From Nitrospirota bacterium (GTDB taxonomy: Bacteria; Nitrospirota; JACRHJ01): a stretch of 44,493 nt of DNA. Shown piece after piece: positions 4,238 through 10,089 of this stretch. How positions within the stretch are numbered: the first letter of the stretch is position 1; each line of letters begins with the position of its first letter. Both the position numbers and the translations under genes were made by a program. Location: NCBI GenBank assembly GCA_963845245.1, contig CAWJRJ010000003.1, positions 1-44,493 of the forward strand, written 5' to 3'. Under the pieces are notes generated by a model. It was not told the origin of the DNA. It did no database searches and was given only the letters and a program-made list of their open reading frames with translations.

Positions 4238-7200
4238 CTACTGGAAACCAGGACAGAACAACGTGTTGTCGATGTTAAGCACGTTGATGGCCTCCCCAAG
4301 TGAAATCGGCGAAGAACACGTCCCGCAGTACGCGCAGGAATAGAAATCCACGACACTAGCGGTAGTCGTGAAGGGATAGGCCAGCTTACCCAACTCAGCC
4401 TCGCGCGAGTTGAGCAGTGCCGAAGCGGCCTGTCTGGTGAGCGCGAGCAAACCGCCTCCCTTCAGGCCGAGTGCTCCCGACATAGTCAATGTCAGCAGTT
4501 TGGGCGCACCTGTGGTCACTGTATAGCAAGGCAGGCTGGCCTGGATGATCTCCAACTTATCCGCCTTCGTGGCATCCGACGGGAAGGTAATGCCGTAGAA
4601 CGCCGTCACAAATAGTTCGTTCGGGCTGTATGGCGCCGGCCAATTTTTCGTATGGTTCTTCCAGTACCCGGGAGAGCAGCCTTGTCCAGGCACGCTGTCG
4701 TTAAACGTGACTGTCACGTTATCTCCGGGGTTAACCGTAAATGCAGCACCATTTGCAATAGTGACGGTACTCGATGTACCGTCGGAATGGACGGCAGTAA
4801 CGCTCACGGAGTCGAGTTCCCAGCCGATAGGCACTACCTCGGTCACGTGGTACGTACCCGGGGACAGGCAACCACTATCAAACGATCCGCCGCAGGATAT
4901 ATCTTTCGATGAAACACCATTGAGCGAAGGGCTGAAGTTGAACGTGAATGTCCCTGAACCGGATGTGCAGGACTTCTTGACGACAACCCTGCCGGACAGA
5001 GTATTCGTGAAGGTTACTGTCTTATCGTCGCCTGCATTGAGCGTGACGCAGGCATTGCCTGTCTGCTGGGCTGTCGTATCGTTATCGGAACCGCTTACCG
5101 CCGTCAGCTTCCAACAGCCTGATAGGACATCCTCTGTTACGCAGTAAGTCCCGGGCGCCAGGTCAGTAAAATCCTGCTTCCCCCCGTTTTGGAGAGAGAA
5201 CGTGGCGGGGGTTAGGCCCGGAGAGCTGAACCCGAAACTCGACTTAGTCGGATCCGGGTTTGGGAGAGTTGCCTTAACCACGTGGAACGACGCCAGCTTG
5301 CTGTCCGTAAACGTCACGACCACGTTTTCACCCGGCTGCAGATTGACCGTCGCAGTCGCAGTCGGTATGTTTGACGTGCTGTCAGCCGTGCAGTCTTCCG
5401 TGAACCCTATATTATTCAGGGTCCAGTGCGCGGGCACCGTCTCAATCACCGTGTATTTGCCTGCAGGCAGGCAGCCGAGGCCGAAATCCGTCGCGGCGGC
5501 CCCGCCAACCACTGGCTGGGAGTTAACGATGATATTTCCATTCGGGTCCTTAACCGTGAAATTGAATGACTCACCGGTTGGGGTGGAAACCTTAGCCACC
5601 TTGATGGTGCCCTTCTTGGAGTTCGTCATGGTCAGGACATTATTATCTCCAGCTTTCGGAGTGATGGTGACGGCATGGCTGGTTATGTCTAGCGGAGTCC
5701 CGTCCAGCGCCGCACTGTCCAACGACCAGCAGGACGGCAGGGTCTCCGTTATCGTGTATGTGTGGCCGGCCGTCAGGGTAATGGTGTCCGATGTCTGGCC
5801 GCAGGTCAGGCTCGGCGTGGCCACGTCCGTGTTGGTCGTGGTGTCGTGCACCGTCATGATGAACGCGGGAGTGCCCGCGTTGCAGCTAGTGCCACAGTCT
5901 TTCTTTATCTTCAGTGTCGCCAGCTGAATGTCGGTGAACGTCACCACCACGTTTTCACCCGGCTGCAGGTTGACCGTCGCAGTCGCCGTCGGTACGTCTG
6001 ACGTGCTGTCGGTCGTGCAGTCTTCCGTGAACCCTATATTGCTTAGGGTCCATAGCGCGGGCAACGTCTCGATTACCGTGTATTTGCCTGCAGGCAGGCA
6101 GCCGAGGCCGAAATCCGTCGCTACGGCCCCGCCAACCACGGGCTGAGAGTTGACTATGATATTTCCATTCGGGTCCTTGACCGTGAAATTGAAGGACGCT
6201 CCGGTCGGGGTGGAAACCTTAGCCACCTTGATGGTGCCCTTCTTGGAGTTCGTCATGGTCAGGACGTTATCATCTCCAGCTTTCGGAGTGATGGTGACGG
6301 CATGGCTGGTTATGTCTAGCGGAGTACCGTCCAGCGTCGCAGTGTCCAGCGACCAGCAGTCCGGCACGGTCTCCGTTATGGTGTACGTGTGGCCGGCCGT
6401 CAGAGTAATGGCATCAGAAGTCTGACCACAAGTCAGGCTAGGCGTTGCCACGTTCGTGTTGGCCGTGGTGTCGTGCACCGTCATAATGAACTCGGTAGAG
6501 CCCGTGTTGCAGCTCGTGCCGCAGTCCTTCTTTATCTTCAGTGTCGGCGGCTTCTGGTTGGTATAGTTAAACTCGAGCGAGGCCCCTGGGACCAGCGTGA
6601 AGCATGCGGTCTTCCCTTCATCCGAAAGGGTGACGGGGAGGCTTGACGGCGTAACGTCAAGGTTGACGAACTGCCAGCCGGACGGCACGGATGTCTCCGA
6701 GACGCAGTAATTGCCAGGGAGCAGGTTGTCAAAATCCTTCAGGTTCGAGTTCGCCCCGCACAGACTGAACGGCGTCTTGTCGTTGTTCGGATTGGTCAAT
6801 TCGAAGTCGAAAGCCTGGGAGGTGCAACCACCGGACGGAAGTGTGTCCTTACGGACGGTTATCGAGCCCAGTTGCTGGTTTTTGAACACACAGGTAACGT
6901 CACCAGCTGAGGCGAAAATCACATCGGCAGTCGCGTTCACCTGGTCGGCATTTACTGTAGCATTGTTGCCCGACGTGGTGAAGCAGGTGACGTTGACGAA
7001 GGCCCAGCCCCTGGGCGGGTCTTTCGGGAGGTCCGCCAGGTGCTCCGTTGCCGTATAAGTACCGGCGACAAGGTTACTGAACGTAGTCTGGTTTGAGAAC
7101 CCCTGTGATGGCGGGTCGTGGAGCGTGAACACTGTGCCGTTCACGTCGAAATTGAAGTCCTGCGTGTTATCCACAGGCTTCGCGCTCTTGATTATAGTAA

Positions 7201-8254
7201 GTGCGCTACAGGTGTCAAATGGCCCCATTACGAAGTCCGTCATGTTTGAGCCTATCGATGCGGATTCATGCGAGTGGACCTGCATCGTCTTGAAACAATG
7301 GCTAAAACCAAGGGCATCGACGTCTATACCGACCTCGGCGAATTCGCCCTGGGCCAGGCTGTCCAAGAGGCTCTTGGTGCCATCGCAGGTGCTCTGGTCG
7401 ACAACCCAGCTGTTGTAGTCCCCAAGCGGTGTTGGGTGTGTGGGTATGGTGCTGAAATTACCAAACGCGAGGATCCTTGTGTCCGTAGCCGGGTCTATAC
7501 CCTGGTCAACGAATATCTTGGCCGTATCGTCCCATTTCTGGACAGTTATGTCGGTAATCCTGCCGCCCTGGGTAAAGTCGAATGACACCAGGAGGTCGCC
7601 GCTGGTTCTTTTGCCGGAAAATGGATTCGCCGTGGAATCTGGCGTGACGCAATACGCCTGCTGAGGTGTGAGGCCGGCGCCATTCATCACGGGCTCTATA
7701 AGCCCCTCGTTGAACTCGAAATCGAAATGGGAATCGCCGTTATTTCCGAGGCGCTCTACGCCGCAGTATATTATGAGATTGCCGTTTACAGGGTCGGTTA
7801 TCCCATACGCATAAGCGTCCATTATATCCTGTTTGGAGTTCGCGTTGCCGAACTTCCAGTGCCAGTCAATGTCAGGCAACTGTCCAAGCTTGTTGCCAGC
7901 GGCAAAAACCGTATCGTTATGAGAATTTGTCTGGTCCTCCATGAAGACTGCGACAACCGGCGTAATACCTCTTGCCTTCAGGAAGGCGTCTCCGGCAGCC
8001 GACACCCTTCCCGAGTCCCTTGAGGAGTAATCAAATAGAGTCGACCAGTCAGGCACTTCGGGATTGCCGCAGATTGTTGTGCCGTGGTCATACCCCTGTA
8101 CCATCTGGGTTATATTGCAGGGAAACAGCGGGCCCTGTGGCCCCAACTGGAAACCGGTTTTCAGGTCAAAACCGGCGGCATACACCGTAGTTGACATTGC
8201 CAATAATAAGGCAAGCAAAAAAGCCGGACTAAGAAATCGCATTTTTCTCTTCAT
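4238..8254 (-). CDS. Large secreted adhesin-like protein (1338 aa) with eight SpaA/CnaB-like prealbumin-fold repeats and a C-terminal GCSPGYWKNH domain
   Basis: Uninterrupted ORF; signal peptide MKRKMRFLSPAFLLALLLAMSTTVYA; RBS GAGGTG; about 105-aa repeats with K...YxxxE...(F/M/Y)xN/D pattern; Thr/Cys rich. Confidence 0.85.
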   Translation of the reverse strand: MKRKMRFLSPAFLLALLLAMSTTVYAAGFDLKTGFQLGPQGPLFPCNITQMVQGYDHGTTICGNPEVPDWSTLFDYSSRDSGRVSAAGDAFLKARGITPVVAVFMEDQTNSHNDTVFAAGNKLGQLPDIDWHWKFGNANSKQDIMDAYAYGITDPVNGNLIIYCGVERLGNNGDSHFDFEFNEGLIEPVMNGAGLTPQQAYCVTPDSTANPFSGKRTSGDLLVSFDFTQGGRITDITVQKWDDTAKIFVDQGIDPATDTRILAFGNFSTIPTHPTPLGDYNSWVVDQSTCDGTKSLLDSLAQGEFAEVGIDVDALGFSHCFKTMQVHSHESASIGSNMTDFVMGPFDTCSALTIIKSAKPVDNTQDFNFDVNGTVFTLHDPPSQGFSNQTTFSNLVAGTYTATEHLADLPKDPPRGWAFVNVTCFTTSGNNATVNADQVNATADVIFASAGDVTCVFKNQQLGSITVRKDTLPSGGCTSQAFDFELTNPNNDKTPFSLCGANSNLKDFDNLLPGNYCVSETSVPSGWQFVNLDVTPSSLPVTLSDEGKTACFTLVPGASLEFNYTNQKPPTLKIKKDCGTSCNTGSTEFIMTVHDTTANTNVATPSLTCGQTSDAITLTAGHTYTITETVPDCWSLDTATLDGTPLDITSHAVTITPKAGDDNVLTMTNSKKGTIKVAKVSTPTGASFNFTVKDPNGNIIVNSQPVVGGAVATDFGLGCLPAGKYTVIETLPALWTLSNIGFTEDCTTDSTSDVPTATATVNLQPGENVVVTFTDIQLATLKIKKDCGTSCNAGTPAFIMTVHDTTTNTDVATPSLTCGQTSDTITLTAGHTYTITETLPSCWSLDSAALDGTPLDITSHAVTITPKAGDNNVLTMTNSKKGTIKVAKVSTPTGESFNFTVKDPNGNIIVNSQPVVGGAAATDFGLGCLPAGKYTVIETVPAHWTLNNIGFTEDCTADSTSNIPTATATVNLQPGENVVVTFTDSKLASFHVVKATLPNPDPTKSSFGFSSPGLTPATFSLQNGGKQDFTDLAPGTYCVTEDVLSGCWKLTAVSGSDNDTTAQQTGNACVTLNAGDDKTVTFTNTLSGRVVVKKSCTSGSGTFTFNFSPSLNGVSSKDISCGGSFDSGCLSPGTYHVTEVVPIGWELDSVSVTAVHSDGTSSTVTIANGAAFTVNPGDNVTVTFNDSVPGQGCSPGYWKNHTKNWPAPYSPNELFVTAFYGITFPSDATKADKLEIIQASLPCYTVTTGAPKLLTLTMSGALGLKGGGLLALTRQAASALLNSREAELGKLAYPFTTTASVVDFYSCAYCGTCSSPISLGEAINVLNIDNTLFCPGFQ
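5292..6545 (-). repeat. Intragenic tandem duplication of a 627-bp (209-aa) two-domain unit
   Basis: TTTATCTTCAGTGTCG at 5904 and 6531 (offset 627); protein segment TLKIKKDCGTSCN...QPGENVVVTFTD occurs twice, nearly identical. Confidence 0.93.
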
Positions 8255-8362
8255 AATTCACCTCTAAGCGCCATATAAAAGCCAATGCCCAGGTAAGACC
8301 GTGCCAAAATATGGATTTCCTGACAGACCTCCTTTCTGAAAAAAAGAGTCAATGAGGGTGAA

Positions 8363-8446
8363 TTCTTCGACAGCCTGGCAATATTCTTGATTGAAGACCC
8401 TAGGCTTTCCGCCCCCTCCTCAAGAAAGATTTGGCTTCATCTGGAA
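8363..8446 (-). ncRNA. GEMM / c-di-GMP-I riboswitch aptamer, gene-proximal copy, variant or degenerate
   Basis: Minus strand AGAUGAAG-CC-AAA-UCUUUC-UUGA-GGAGGGG-GCGG-AAA-GCCUAGGGUCUUC...GAAUAUUGCCAGGCUGUCGAA; same scaffold as the distal copy 154 nt upstream. Confidence 0.75.
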
Positions 8447-8488
8447 TGATTAAACGGGTATTTCATAAGACTTGGGGACAGTGGAAAT

Positions 8489-8533
8489 AAAAAATGCCGA
8501 GCTGCGAAAGAATGTCTCCTTCGGCAGCCCGGC
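8489..8533 (-). terminator. Riboswitch expression-platform terminator overlapping the 3' side of the distal aptamer
   Basis: Minus strand GCCGGGCUGCCGAAGGA...UCUUUCGCAGCUCGGC followed by AUUUUUU; left arm is the aptamer P3/P1 3' strand. Confidence 0.82.
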
Positions 8534-8599
8534 TATCTTCTTGGTTGAAGACCCTTGGCTTTCCGCCCCCCCCTCACGGAAGGTTTGGCTTTGTCGGAA
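8517..8599 (-). ncRNA. GEMM / c-di-GMP-I riboswitch aptamer, distal copy
   Basis: Minus strand CCGACAAAG-CC-AAA-CCUUCC-GUGA-GGGGGGG-GCGG-AAA-GCCAAGGGUCUUC...GAAGAUAGCCGGGCUGCCGAA; GNRA loop, G20, A47 and C92 equivalents (Vc2 numbering) all present. Confidence 0.92.
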
Positions 8600-8619
8600 T
8601 TGCTGGAAGTGTTATGGGT

Positions 8620-8649
8620 TAGTTAAACAGGGAAATGTTACTTTGTCAA
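8620..8649 (-). promoter_or_regulatory. Possible sigma70 promoter for the riboswitch-adhesin transcript
   Basis: Perfect TTGACA (+ strand TGTCAA 8644-8649); -10 is weak (TTAACT at 17-bp spacing). Confidence 0.45.
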
Positions 8650-8691: not shown

Positions 8692-8723
8692 ACAAAGGGG
8701 CTACGGCCCAAGCCGCAGCCCCT
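8692..8723 (-). terminator. Terminator hairpin after the Gly-rich protein gene
   Basis: Minus strand AGGGGCTGCGGC-TTGG-GCCGTAGCCCCT followed by TTGTATT. Confidence 0.7.
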
Positions 8724-8757: not shown

Positions 8758-10089
8758 TTATCTGCCCCTGCCGTGGCCGCCGCCACCAAACGAGCGGCCG
8801 CCTCCTCCACCGAAACCTCTGCTGAAGCCGCCGCCGAATGAGTGGCCACCTCCGCCACTGAAGCCTCTGTTGAAACTACCTCCTCCGAATGACCTCACAG
8901 AGCTTCCGCCAAAGCCTCGGTTGAAGCCTCCGCCGAACGACCTCACGGAGCCGCTGTTGAATGAACGGTTACCCCCGTTGAATGACCTTATTGAGTTGCC
9001 GCCAATCGACCTGACTCCCTGGAATGAACGGGAAGAGCCGTTAAACGACCTGCCTTGGCCGCCGGAGAAGCCCCATGACCTGCCGGACCCGACAACCGAA
9101 TTGCTGTCGCGCCTGGTCATCACCCCGCCCCTCTGGACGAAGGTGTTAGCACTGCGGTTGAAGCTCCTGCCCACTATATTGGATGCGCTCGACCTGTTAA
9201 ACGAGCCGCCTCTTGCAAAGTCATGCATGCCCGCGGTCCTCGATATGGGTGCAAACGACCTTGCGCCGGCAGGCCTGTACGAAGTCTCGGAGCGTGGGTG
9301 CATCGATACCGGGTCTATGGACACGGTCCTGTTCGAGAAGCGGTCGGTCACGTGGTTGCTTATCATACCGTGGTTGTGCCAGTCGTGCCCGAATTCGTCC
9401 CTGTGGCCGAAGTGGTGGTGATCGCGGTCGAAGTGGCCGAAGTCGTCGAAGTCAGCAAAGAACGCGAAGTCGTTAAGTACGAAGTACCCGGGGTAGAAGA
9501 AGCCGTCGCACCAGAACGGGAACGGGTCCCATGCGTAAAGATAAAGATAGTCCGGTGGAGGCTCATAGTACGTGATTACTGGCGGGCCTTGGTCTGCGTA
9601 GTAGTTGTCCAACGCTGTCTGGTCATCGTATGCCGGGGCCTCGGAATAAACCTGCTGGTCTTCATTGTTGTATTCCGTTATCTTGGCTCCCGGAGCACCC
9701 GGTGTGACGGAAAGCCCGGCCTCTGCGTTAAGCGCCAGGAAAGCGCTGTACGCGTCTGCCTTGTTCATCGCAAGCCTGCCCGAACTTGCGGATGTGTCTA
9801 TTGACGTCTGGAGTTGTGCTATGATGTCAGGAGTTACCGGGAAGTCAGAGATCCAGCCGCTATCCGGTGCTATGCCTACTTTAACAAGCGCGTTTTCGGC
9901 GTCCGCTTCGGTTGTCGCAGGCCCAACCTTCAGGGATTGTGCCAGTTTCACCGCATAATCACCTTCTCTTACGAGCATCTGGCCTATCGGAGGTGTGCTC
10001 TTTGAGATGTCCGCTGCGTATGCCGTACCTGCCGCTAGAGGCACCATAAGGAGCAGACCGGCAATTACTGCCAGATATATCCTTTTCAT
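8758..10089 (-). CDS. Secreted protein with acidic/aromatic middle segment and long Gly/Ser/Phe/Arg low-complexity C-terminal tail
   Basis: Signal peptide ending AYA-A; RBS GGAGGAG; repeated RSFNGG/RSFGGG/RGFGGG units in the last 130 or so aa. Confidence 0.85.
   Translation of the reverse strand: MKRIYLAVIAGLLLMVPLAAGTAYAADISKSTPPIGQMLVREGDYAVKLAQSLKVGPATTEADAENALVKVGIAPDSGWISDFPVTPDIIAQLQTSIDTSASSGRLAMNKADAYSAFLALNAEAGLSVTPGAPGAKITEYNNEDQQVYSEAPAYDDQTALDNYYADQGPPVITYYEPPPDYLYLYAWDPFPFWCDGFFYPGYFVLNDFAFFADFDDFGHFDRDHHHFGHRDEFGHDWHNHGMISNHVTDRFSNRTVSIDPVSMHPRSETSYRPAGARSFAPISRTAGMHDFARGGSFNRSSASNIVGRSFNRSANTFVQRGGVMTRRDSNSVVGSGRSWGFSGGQGRSFNGSSRSFQGVRSIGGNSIRSFNGGNRSFNSGSVRSFGGGFNRGFGGSSVRSFGGGSFNRGFSGGGGHSFGGGFSRGFGGGGGRSFGGGGHGRGR

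Follow-up and report, generated by a model that had tools for sequence, protein, structure and literature searches.

The leader of an adhesin-like gene in a Nitrospirota genome carries two GEMM-I (c-di-GMP-I) aptamers with different binding pockets. The distal aptamer has the canonical G20/C92 pocket and overlaps a strong intrinsic terminator; the proximal aptamer has U at position 92, a state that recurs in structurally constrained aptamers of other bacteria. We tentatively read the leader, with somewhat less than even confidence, as a two-checkpoint c-di-GMP ON switch, whose second, U92-containing sensor would be of lower affinity and possibly promiscuous.

The tandem aptamers and their expression platforms

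The DNA analysed, here called the window, is the whole 44.5-kb stretch (44,493 nucleotides). A cmscan search of the window against Rfam returned exactly two riboswitch matches, both on the minus strand, and pocket and loop positions were read against the cmscan alignment and the sequence. The features of the locus, in the order of transcription, are as follows.

8696 to 8723, minus strand: terminator of the upstream gene (8758-10089), called by the terminator scan, 12-bp stem with 9 G-C pairs
8621 to 8649, minus strand: candidate sigma-70 promoter, TTGACA at 8649-8644, 17-nt spacer, TTAACT at 8626-8621 (by eye, low confidence)
8519 to 8598, minus strand: distal GEMM-I aptamer, canonical pocket (RF03167 67.7 bits, E 5e-14; RF01051 63.5 bits; nhmmer E 1.4e-14)
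8484 to 8533, minus strand: distal intrinsic terminator, 16-bp hairpin at 8533-8496 followed by AUUUUUUAUUU (RNAfold -27.0 kcal/mol)
8366 to 8445, minus strand: proximal GEMM-I aptamer, variant pocket (RF01051 41.6 bits against a gathering score of 35, E 6.8e-5; nhmmer E 1.1e-12)
8339 to 8371, minus strand: proximal terminator-like element, 7-bp hairpin at 8371-8348 followed by U7 at 8345-8339 (RNAfold -4.7 kcal/mol)
4238 to 8254, minus strand: regulated gene for a 1338-aa secreted, adhesin-like repeat protein (Pfam SpaA_4 6.1e-25, SpaA 5.8e-16, SdrD_B 2.4e-8)

The two aptamers occupy positions 8598-8519 and 8445-8366, with a G20-to-G20 spacing of 154 nt (8589 and 8435). An earlier note on this DNA had called two c-di-GMP-I scaffolds at this spacing, together with the pocket, loop and P3 positions of both copies that are given below; every coordinate proved right, and both copies passed the Infernal check against Rfam that the note had proposed. 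The host assembly is a metagenome-assembled genome of 2.88 Mb in 37 contigs, with 90% completeness and 5.2% contamination. Infernal found only five GEMM-I matches in all of it, and an nhmmer profile recovered the identical five. With two of these five being neighbours here, the tandem is not due to chance. The remaining three aptamers are all G20/C92, A20 is absent from the whole Infernal and nhmmer set of five, and the four aptamers other than the proximal copy score 50-63.5 bits on RF01051.

In the distal copy, G20 is at 8589, C92 is at 8524, A47 is kept after the closing pair, and the interhelical pair C44-G83 is kept as well, its C lying in GGC and its G in the AG bulge. The P1b loop is GUGA (8577-8574). 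This copy scores 63.5 bits on RF01051 (gathering score 35) and 67.7 bits on RF03167, the c-di-GMP-I-GGC variant (gathering score 59), of which Weinberg 2017 is reportedly the defining paper. We took the hallmark of RF03167, inferred from two consensus lines, to be G instead of A directly after the P1b closing pair (position 47). Assignment of the distal copy to this variant was rejected, as its position 47 is A. RF03167 was also the best-scoring model for 13 of 39 U92 aptamers described in the next section, although position 47 is A there, too. A best match to RF03167 thus reflects a short G+C-rich scaffold and not a variant pocket, and the distal copy should be filed under canonical c-di-GMP-I.

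The distal terminator hairpin is followed by U6 and is also present in the minimum free energy (MFE) structure of the whole leader. The 3' part of the distal aptamer (8533-8517) serves as the 5' arm of this hairpin, in which C92 pairs with G8505. Because the 3' half of the aptamer doubles as the 5' arm of the terminator, the ON-switch reading, which the earlier note had drawn from this overlap, is sound. The distal copy is, as predicted from this architecture, a canonical terminator-type ON switch.

The proximal copy has G20 at 8435 and U at 8370, the position of the C92 of RF01051. It keeps A47 (in the AAA after GGCGG) and the C44-G83 pair (C within GGC, G within the UG bulge). The P1b (P2) loop is UUGA (8423-8420) and therefore not a GNRA tetraloop, P3 contains a C8396·U8383 mismatch in place of the C-G pair of the distal copy, and the 5' strand of P1 has one extra A, with P1 retained. 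All three substitutions in P1b preserve pairing. Both copies share a swapped C21-G46 pair, which is also found in A20 aptamers of phylum relatives. The two aptamers are identical at 67 of 79 positions (85%), and their adjoining flanks are unalignable. Four of the 12 substitutions fall on conserved consensus positions by eye, which is not clearly below chance. The proximal copy is 84% identical to an aptamer of the phylum relative G048 and 86% identical to the U92 aptamer of genome G423, and several of the bases specific to it are also present in aptamers from other genomes. It is the lowest-scoring GEMM-I aptamer among all those examined (41.6 bits versus at least 48.6 bits for 39 natural U92 aptamers).

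The hairpin downstream of the proximal copy, with seven pairs and an 8-nt loop, overlaps the 3' strand of P1, and U92 pairs there with A8349. The terminator scan did not call this hairpin and its U7, and in the whole-leader MFE structure the 3' strand of proximal P1b pairs with the spacer instead. Given this competing pairing, the missing scan call, and a hairpin stability of only -4.7 kcal/mol, the second checkpoint looks much weaker than the first. A strong Shine-Dalgarno-like GAAAGGAGG (8336-8328, minus strand) directly follows the proximal U7 and is complementary to the 5' strand of proximal P1b in the MFE structure; by eye, no start codon that it could serve lies within range. A mini-ORF of seven codons is located at 8274-8251 (minus strand), with its stop overlapping the adhesin ATG.

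The protein encoded downstream contains SpaA_4, SpaA, and SdrD_B prealbumin-fold repeats, and its N-terminus resembles a signal peptide by eye, so the term "adhesin leader", used in the earlier note, is fair. On the other side, the terminator at 8723-8696 is the 5' limit of the leader transcription unit. The candidate promoter lies ca. 15-20 nt upstream of the distal aptamer; a consensus promoter scan called none at its threshold, and the candidate -10 hexamer matches the consensus at three of six positions only.

A DNA search with the leader in 100 relatives yielded only matches to the aptamer core, all in other families, and none in 11 same-family genomes. A pattern scan of metagenomes for the leader gave two unrelated single C92 aptamers only. 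No ortholog of the adhesin N-terminus was detected among 30 relatives at E<=1e-10.

U92 in other GEMM-I aptamers

A P2-to-P1 pattern allowing either pyrimidine at position 92 matched 27 places in a phylum sample of 401 genomes (three of the 27 look spurious by eye); position 92 was C in 26 of them and U in one, the locus described here. A U-specific pattern, applied to one genome per species of bacteria and archaea, returned 65 loci, of which 39 were judged true by eye. The pattern is narrow, and the Rfam check covered 40 of the 65 loci, namely these 39 plus one control (L069); all 39 passed, at 48.6-76.2 bits. The earlier note had proposed to look for the same tandem and U92 in related genomes: the leader was not found in the 11 same-family genomes, U92 occurred at this locus only in the phylum sample, and 39 Rfam-passing aptamers with U92 were found elsewhere.

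Thirty-five of these aptamers are G20/U92 and four are A20/U92. Their hosts are spread over many phyla; among them are members of Rubrobacteraceae, Rokubacteria, Chloroflexia, Bdellovibrionales, Myxococcota, Geobacteraceae, Desulfuromonadales, Planctomycetia, and Acidimicrobiales, and one isolate, Marinobacterium mangrovicola. Compensatory changes were observed in nine of 15 predicted pairs, which indicates that natural U92 aptamers are constrained RNAs. The P1b loop starts with G in 36 of 37 distinct natural U92 aptamers and with U in the remaining one. We conclude from the sequences that U92 occurs naturally in GEMM-I, that it is common, and that it is under structural constraint. Smith et al. 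(2010) reportedly describe C92U as a common natural variant in which the pair with G adopts an alternative geometry.

C92 and U92 paralogs coexist in the same genomes and are often near-identical. Among 27 RF01051 hits in five genomes (G413, G402, G415, and G420 of Rubrobacteraceae, and G405; loci L164-L190), 12 were U92 and 15 were C92; these genomes were picked for carrying U92, and the 12 of 27 is thus biased upward. Further aptamers were found within 400 nt at three of the 39 U92 loci (L077, L094, and L116). Position 92, taught as an invariant C, is U in a large constrained natural set, often beside C92 paralogs in the same genome.

The four A20/U92 aptamers (L077:390-481, L094:390-481, L115:397-483 on the minus strand, and L116:397-485 on the minus strand) come from Anaerolineae, Planctomycetia, and Chloroflexia assemblies, and their pocket is that of the engineered G20A/C92U mutant. 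At L077 and L094, a G20/C92 aptamer is located ca. 170 nt downstream, and the aptamer at L116 is the first of three abutting ones. The closest well-formed G20/U92 relative of the tandem is L160:1501-1584 on the minus strand (G423:C9:18194-18277), which matches the distal aptamer at 91% of 78 aligned bases. This relative is followed, by eye, by a strong terminator and precedes a gene whose secreted product includes a transglutaminase-like stretch.

The ligand of the proximal aptamer

In class I aptamers, one guanine of c-di-GMP is read by the Hoogsteen edge of G20, and the second is paired with C92 (PMC6140456, PMC5888326); G20 and C92 are less conserved than A47 (PMC9049102). In the Vc2 C92U mutant, the c-di-GMP response in vivo is much reduced but not abolished (bioRxiv 10.1101/617340). 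The earlier note had stated that engineered C92U favours adenine at the second site, and this is borne out by PMC12032345 (citing Shanahan), where C92U lets Vc2, a class I aptamer, bind 3',3'-cGAMP; the double mutant G20A/C92U binds c-di-AMP (PMC7288161, PMC9049102). No assay of a natural G20/U92 aptamer was found in the accessible literature; the supplements of Wang 2016 (PMC5041473, 52 screened aptamers) may include U92 sequences.

Under the two-checkpoint reading, transcription would probably start near 8615, and polymerase would first reach the canonical c-di-GMP aptamer. Bound ligand would hold the 5' arm of the terminator and allow read-through; without ligand at the distal aptamer, the strong terminator would form. 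Polymerase would then reach a second aptamer of the same fold, in which the Watson-Crick reader is U, not C. We infer that a G·U wobble would let this copy retain c-di-GMP binding at reduced strength; 3',3'-cGAMP may be accepted as well. The hairpin and U7 stop that it would gate are much weaker. As a predicted net effect, high c-di-GMP would induce the adhesin more strictly and more steeply, with control exerted mostly at the first switch. A lower-affinity c-di-GMP checkpoint is the simplest reading, since U92 is common and constrained, the response of Vc2 C92U is partial, and the Hypr pattern described below occurs in only four of 35 other U92 hosts. Should U92 affect affinity alone, such tandems would provide graded thresholds for one and the same signal.

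Ser348 together with the GGDEF motif is the hallmark of Hypr GGDEF cyclases (PMC6456294), and GacB of M. xanthus has a GAF-GGDEF architecture (bioRxiv 10.1101/600031). The Hypr signature was found in two of 16 scored GGDEF domains of the host genome, and both belong to GAF-GGDEF proteins:

G000:C18:209965-210438 (L138:583-1995): S348 GAF-GGDEF gene 1 (Ser348 and GGDEF)
G000:C24:58337-58855 (L144:925-2070): S348 GAF-GGDEF gene 2 (Ser348 and GGDEF)

The two proteins are candidate cGAMP-making enzymes in a genome without an A20 riboswitch. By hand count, they have Leu or Asp at the canonical cross-dimer Arg position. An S/T348 GGDEF pattern, which is strict and was applied to hosts that are mostly incomplete assemblies, was present in four of 35 other U92-host genomes and absent from 31. 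A D348 control pattern returned 1, 3, 10, 0, and 18 cyclases in five U92 hosts, i.e., it worked in four of the five. One of the four S/T348-positive hosts, G423, has one ordinary A20 aptamer in addition to two S348 GGDEF matches. A general link between U92 and Hypr cyclases was rejected on the basis of these counts (four of 35 hosts, with the control working in four of five).

The earlier note had offered a choice between a two-input gate and a decaying duplicate. Both are retained here as alternatives, but the choice omits what we regard as the likeliest reading, the lower-affinity c-di-GMP checkpoint. If the proximal copy were a decaying or negligible duplicate, with no useful fold, binding or termination, the distal switch would regulate the adhesin gene alone, a possibility that we take seriously but consider rather unlikely. 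It is consistent with the lowest score of every GEMM-I aptamer examined, the C·U mismatch in P3, the extra A in P1, and a UUGA loop where 36 of 37 natural U92 aptamers keep GNRA. The proximal hairpin is also far less stable than the distal one (-4.7 versus -27.0 kcal/mol), and the MFE structure contains a competing spacer pairing. The leader was not found in the 11 same-family genomes or the 100 relatives searched, nor the gene in 30 relatives. However, the proximal copy still passes the curated Rfam cut-off, its pocket and tertiary-contact bases are intact save for position 92, and the three P1b changes keep pairing. An identity of 85% confined to the aptamer, with dissimilar flanks, is not expected of a whole duplicate drifting neutrally, and the proximal copy resembles aptamers from other genomes (84-86%) about as closely as it does its distal neighbour. 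A hairpin followed by U7 is also located exactly where an expression platform is expected, with U92 paired with A8349 there. An error in the assembly or consensus at 8370, the true base being C92, is highly improbable: the genome is admittedly a metagenome-assembled one in 37 contigs (90% completeness, 5.2% contamination), but the 12 other differences between the copies argue against a collapsed repeat, the Watson-Crick pair with A8349 involves the U itself, and U92 is common in nature.

A two-input AND gate would have the distal aptamer read c-di-GMP and the proximal G20/U92 pocket prefer 3',3'-cGAMP, its G being recognised by G20 and its A by U92 through pairing, so that the adhesin would be made only when both are present. 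The engineered C92U change does enable 3',3'-cGAMP binding by a class I aptamer (PMC12032345), the host encodes two Hypr-signature GAF-GGDEF proteins among 16 GGDEF domains scored, and, with no A20 among the five GEMM-I aptamers, U92 would be the sole candidate RNA reader for cGAMP. The coexistence of U92 and C92 paralogs (12 and 15 of 27, in genomes selected for U92) recalls that of G20 and A20 aptamers in Geobacter. On the other hand, U can wobble-pair with G, which makes discrimination against c-di-GMP doubtful, and Vc2 C92U still responds to c-di-GMP (bioRxiv 10.1101/617340). The S/T348 pattern is present in just four of 35 other U92 hosts, one of which (G423) already has an ordinary A20 aptamer, and no gate combining c-di-GMP-I with c-AMP-GMP appears in the accessible part of the tandem review (PMC9481103, Table 2). 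We therefore consider the AND gate improbable. In its widest form, G20/U92 would be a natural second route to a mixed A/G dinucleotide, the mirror of A20, the leader would be a gate for c-di-GMP and 3',3'-cGAMP, and the many U92 aptamers that coexist with C92 ones in other phyla would represent a specificity subclass that has so far been overlooked; this proposal is distinctly improbable. If U92 does shift preference to cGAMP, the annotation "c-di-GMP-I" would need a second specificity rule besides A20.

Comparison with known GEMM-I systems

Tandems of c-di-GMP-I switches are common: the review by Sherlock et al. (2022, PMC9481103) counts 347 doublets and 12 triplets and cites a triple arrangement in B. 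thuringiensis. The leader described here is like those tandems in having two class I aptamers, both complete, of which the first is equipped with a terminator, and a surface or adhesion gene downstream, for which a sharper, more digital response is expected. It is unlike them in that its two pockets differ (C92 versus U92) and its second platform is weak; the pocket bases of the published tandems are not broken down in the accessible part of the review. Tandem c-di-GMP switches before adhesin genes represent a known way of sharpening attachment decisions, and the element itself is in this respect ordinary.

The proximal copy has the same fold as the Vc2 C92U mutant and the same G20/A47/U92 pocket (PDB 3MUR, 3UD3, and 3UD4; PMC10671752). 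Unlike that mutant, it is natural, its short P3 lacks a tetraloop receptor, its C21-G46 pair is swapped, its loop is UUGA, and it belongs to a predicted ON switch.

The GEMM-Ib switches of Geobacter, which respond to 3',3'-cGAMP (A20/C92; tandem pairs before omcAHG), share with the present leader the scaffold lineage, terminator-type ON logic, and tandem arrangement, and their hosts have Hypr GGDEF cyclases (PMC6456294), as the present genome does by signature. A20, which defines GEMM-Ib, is found in neither copy: unlike in Geobacter, both are G20, and reading of adenine would need position 92.

In Desulfobacca acetoxidans, a cluster of c-di-GMP-I and c-AMP-GMP variants likewise places near-identical GEMM-I aptamers with different pocket bases side by side (PMC9481103). 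The variant base in that cluster is at position 20, unlike here, and the gate partners are AdoCbl riboswitches, not a second GEMM-I. Another GEMM-I-like pair, with its members ca. 200 nt apart, is present in the phylum relative G048 (C10:510207-510323 and 510410-510534).
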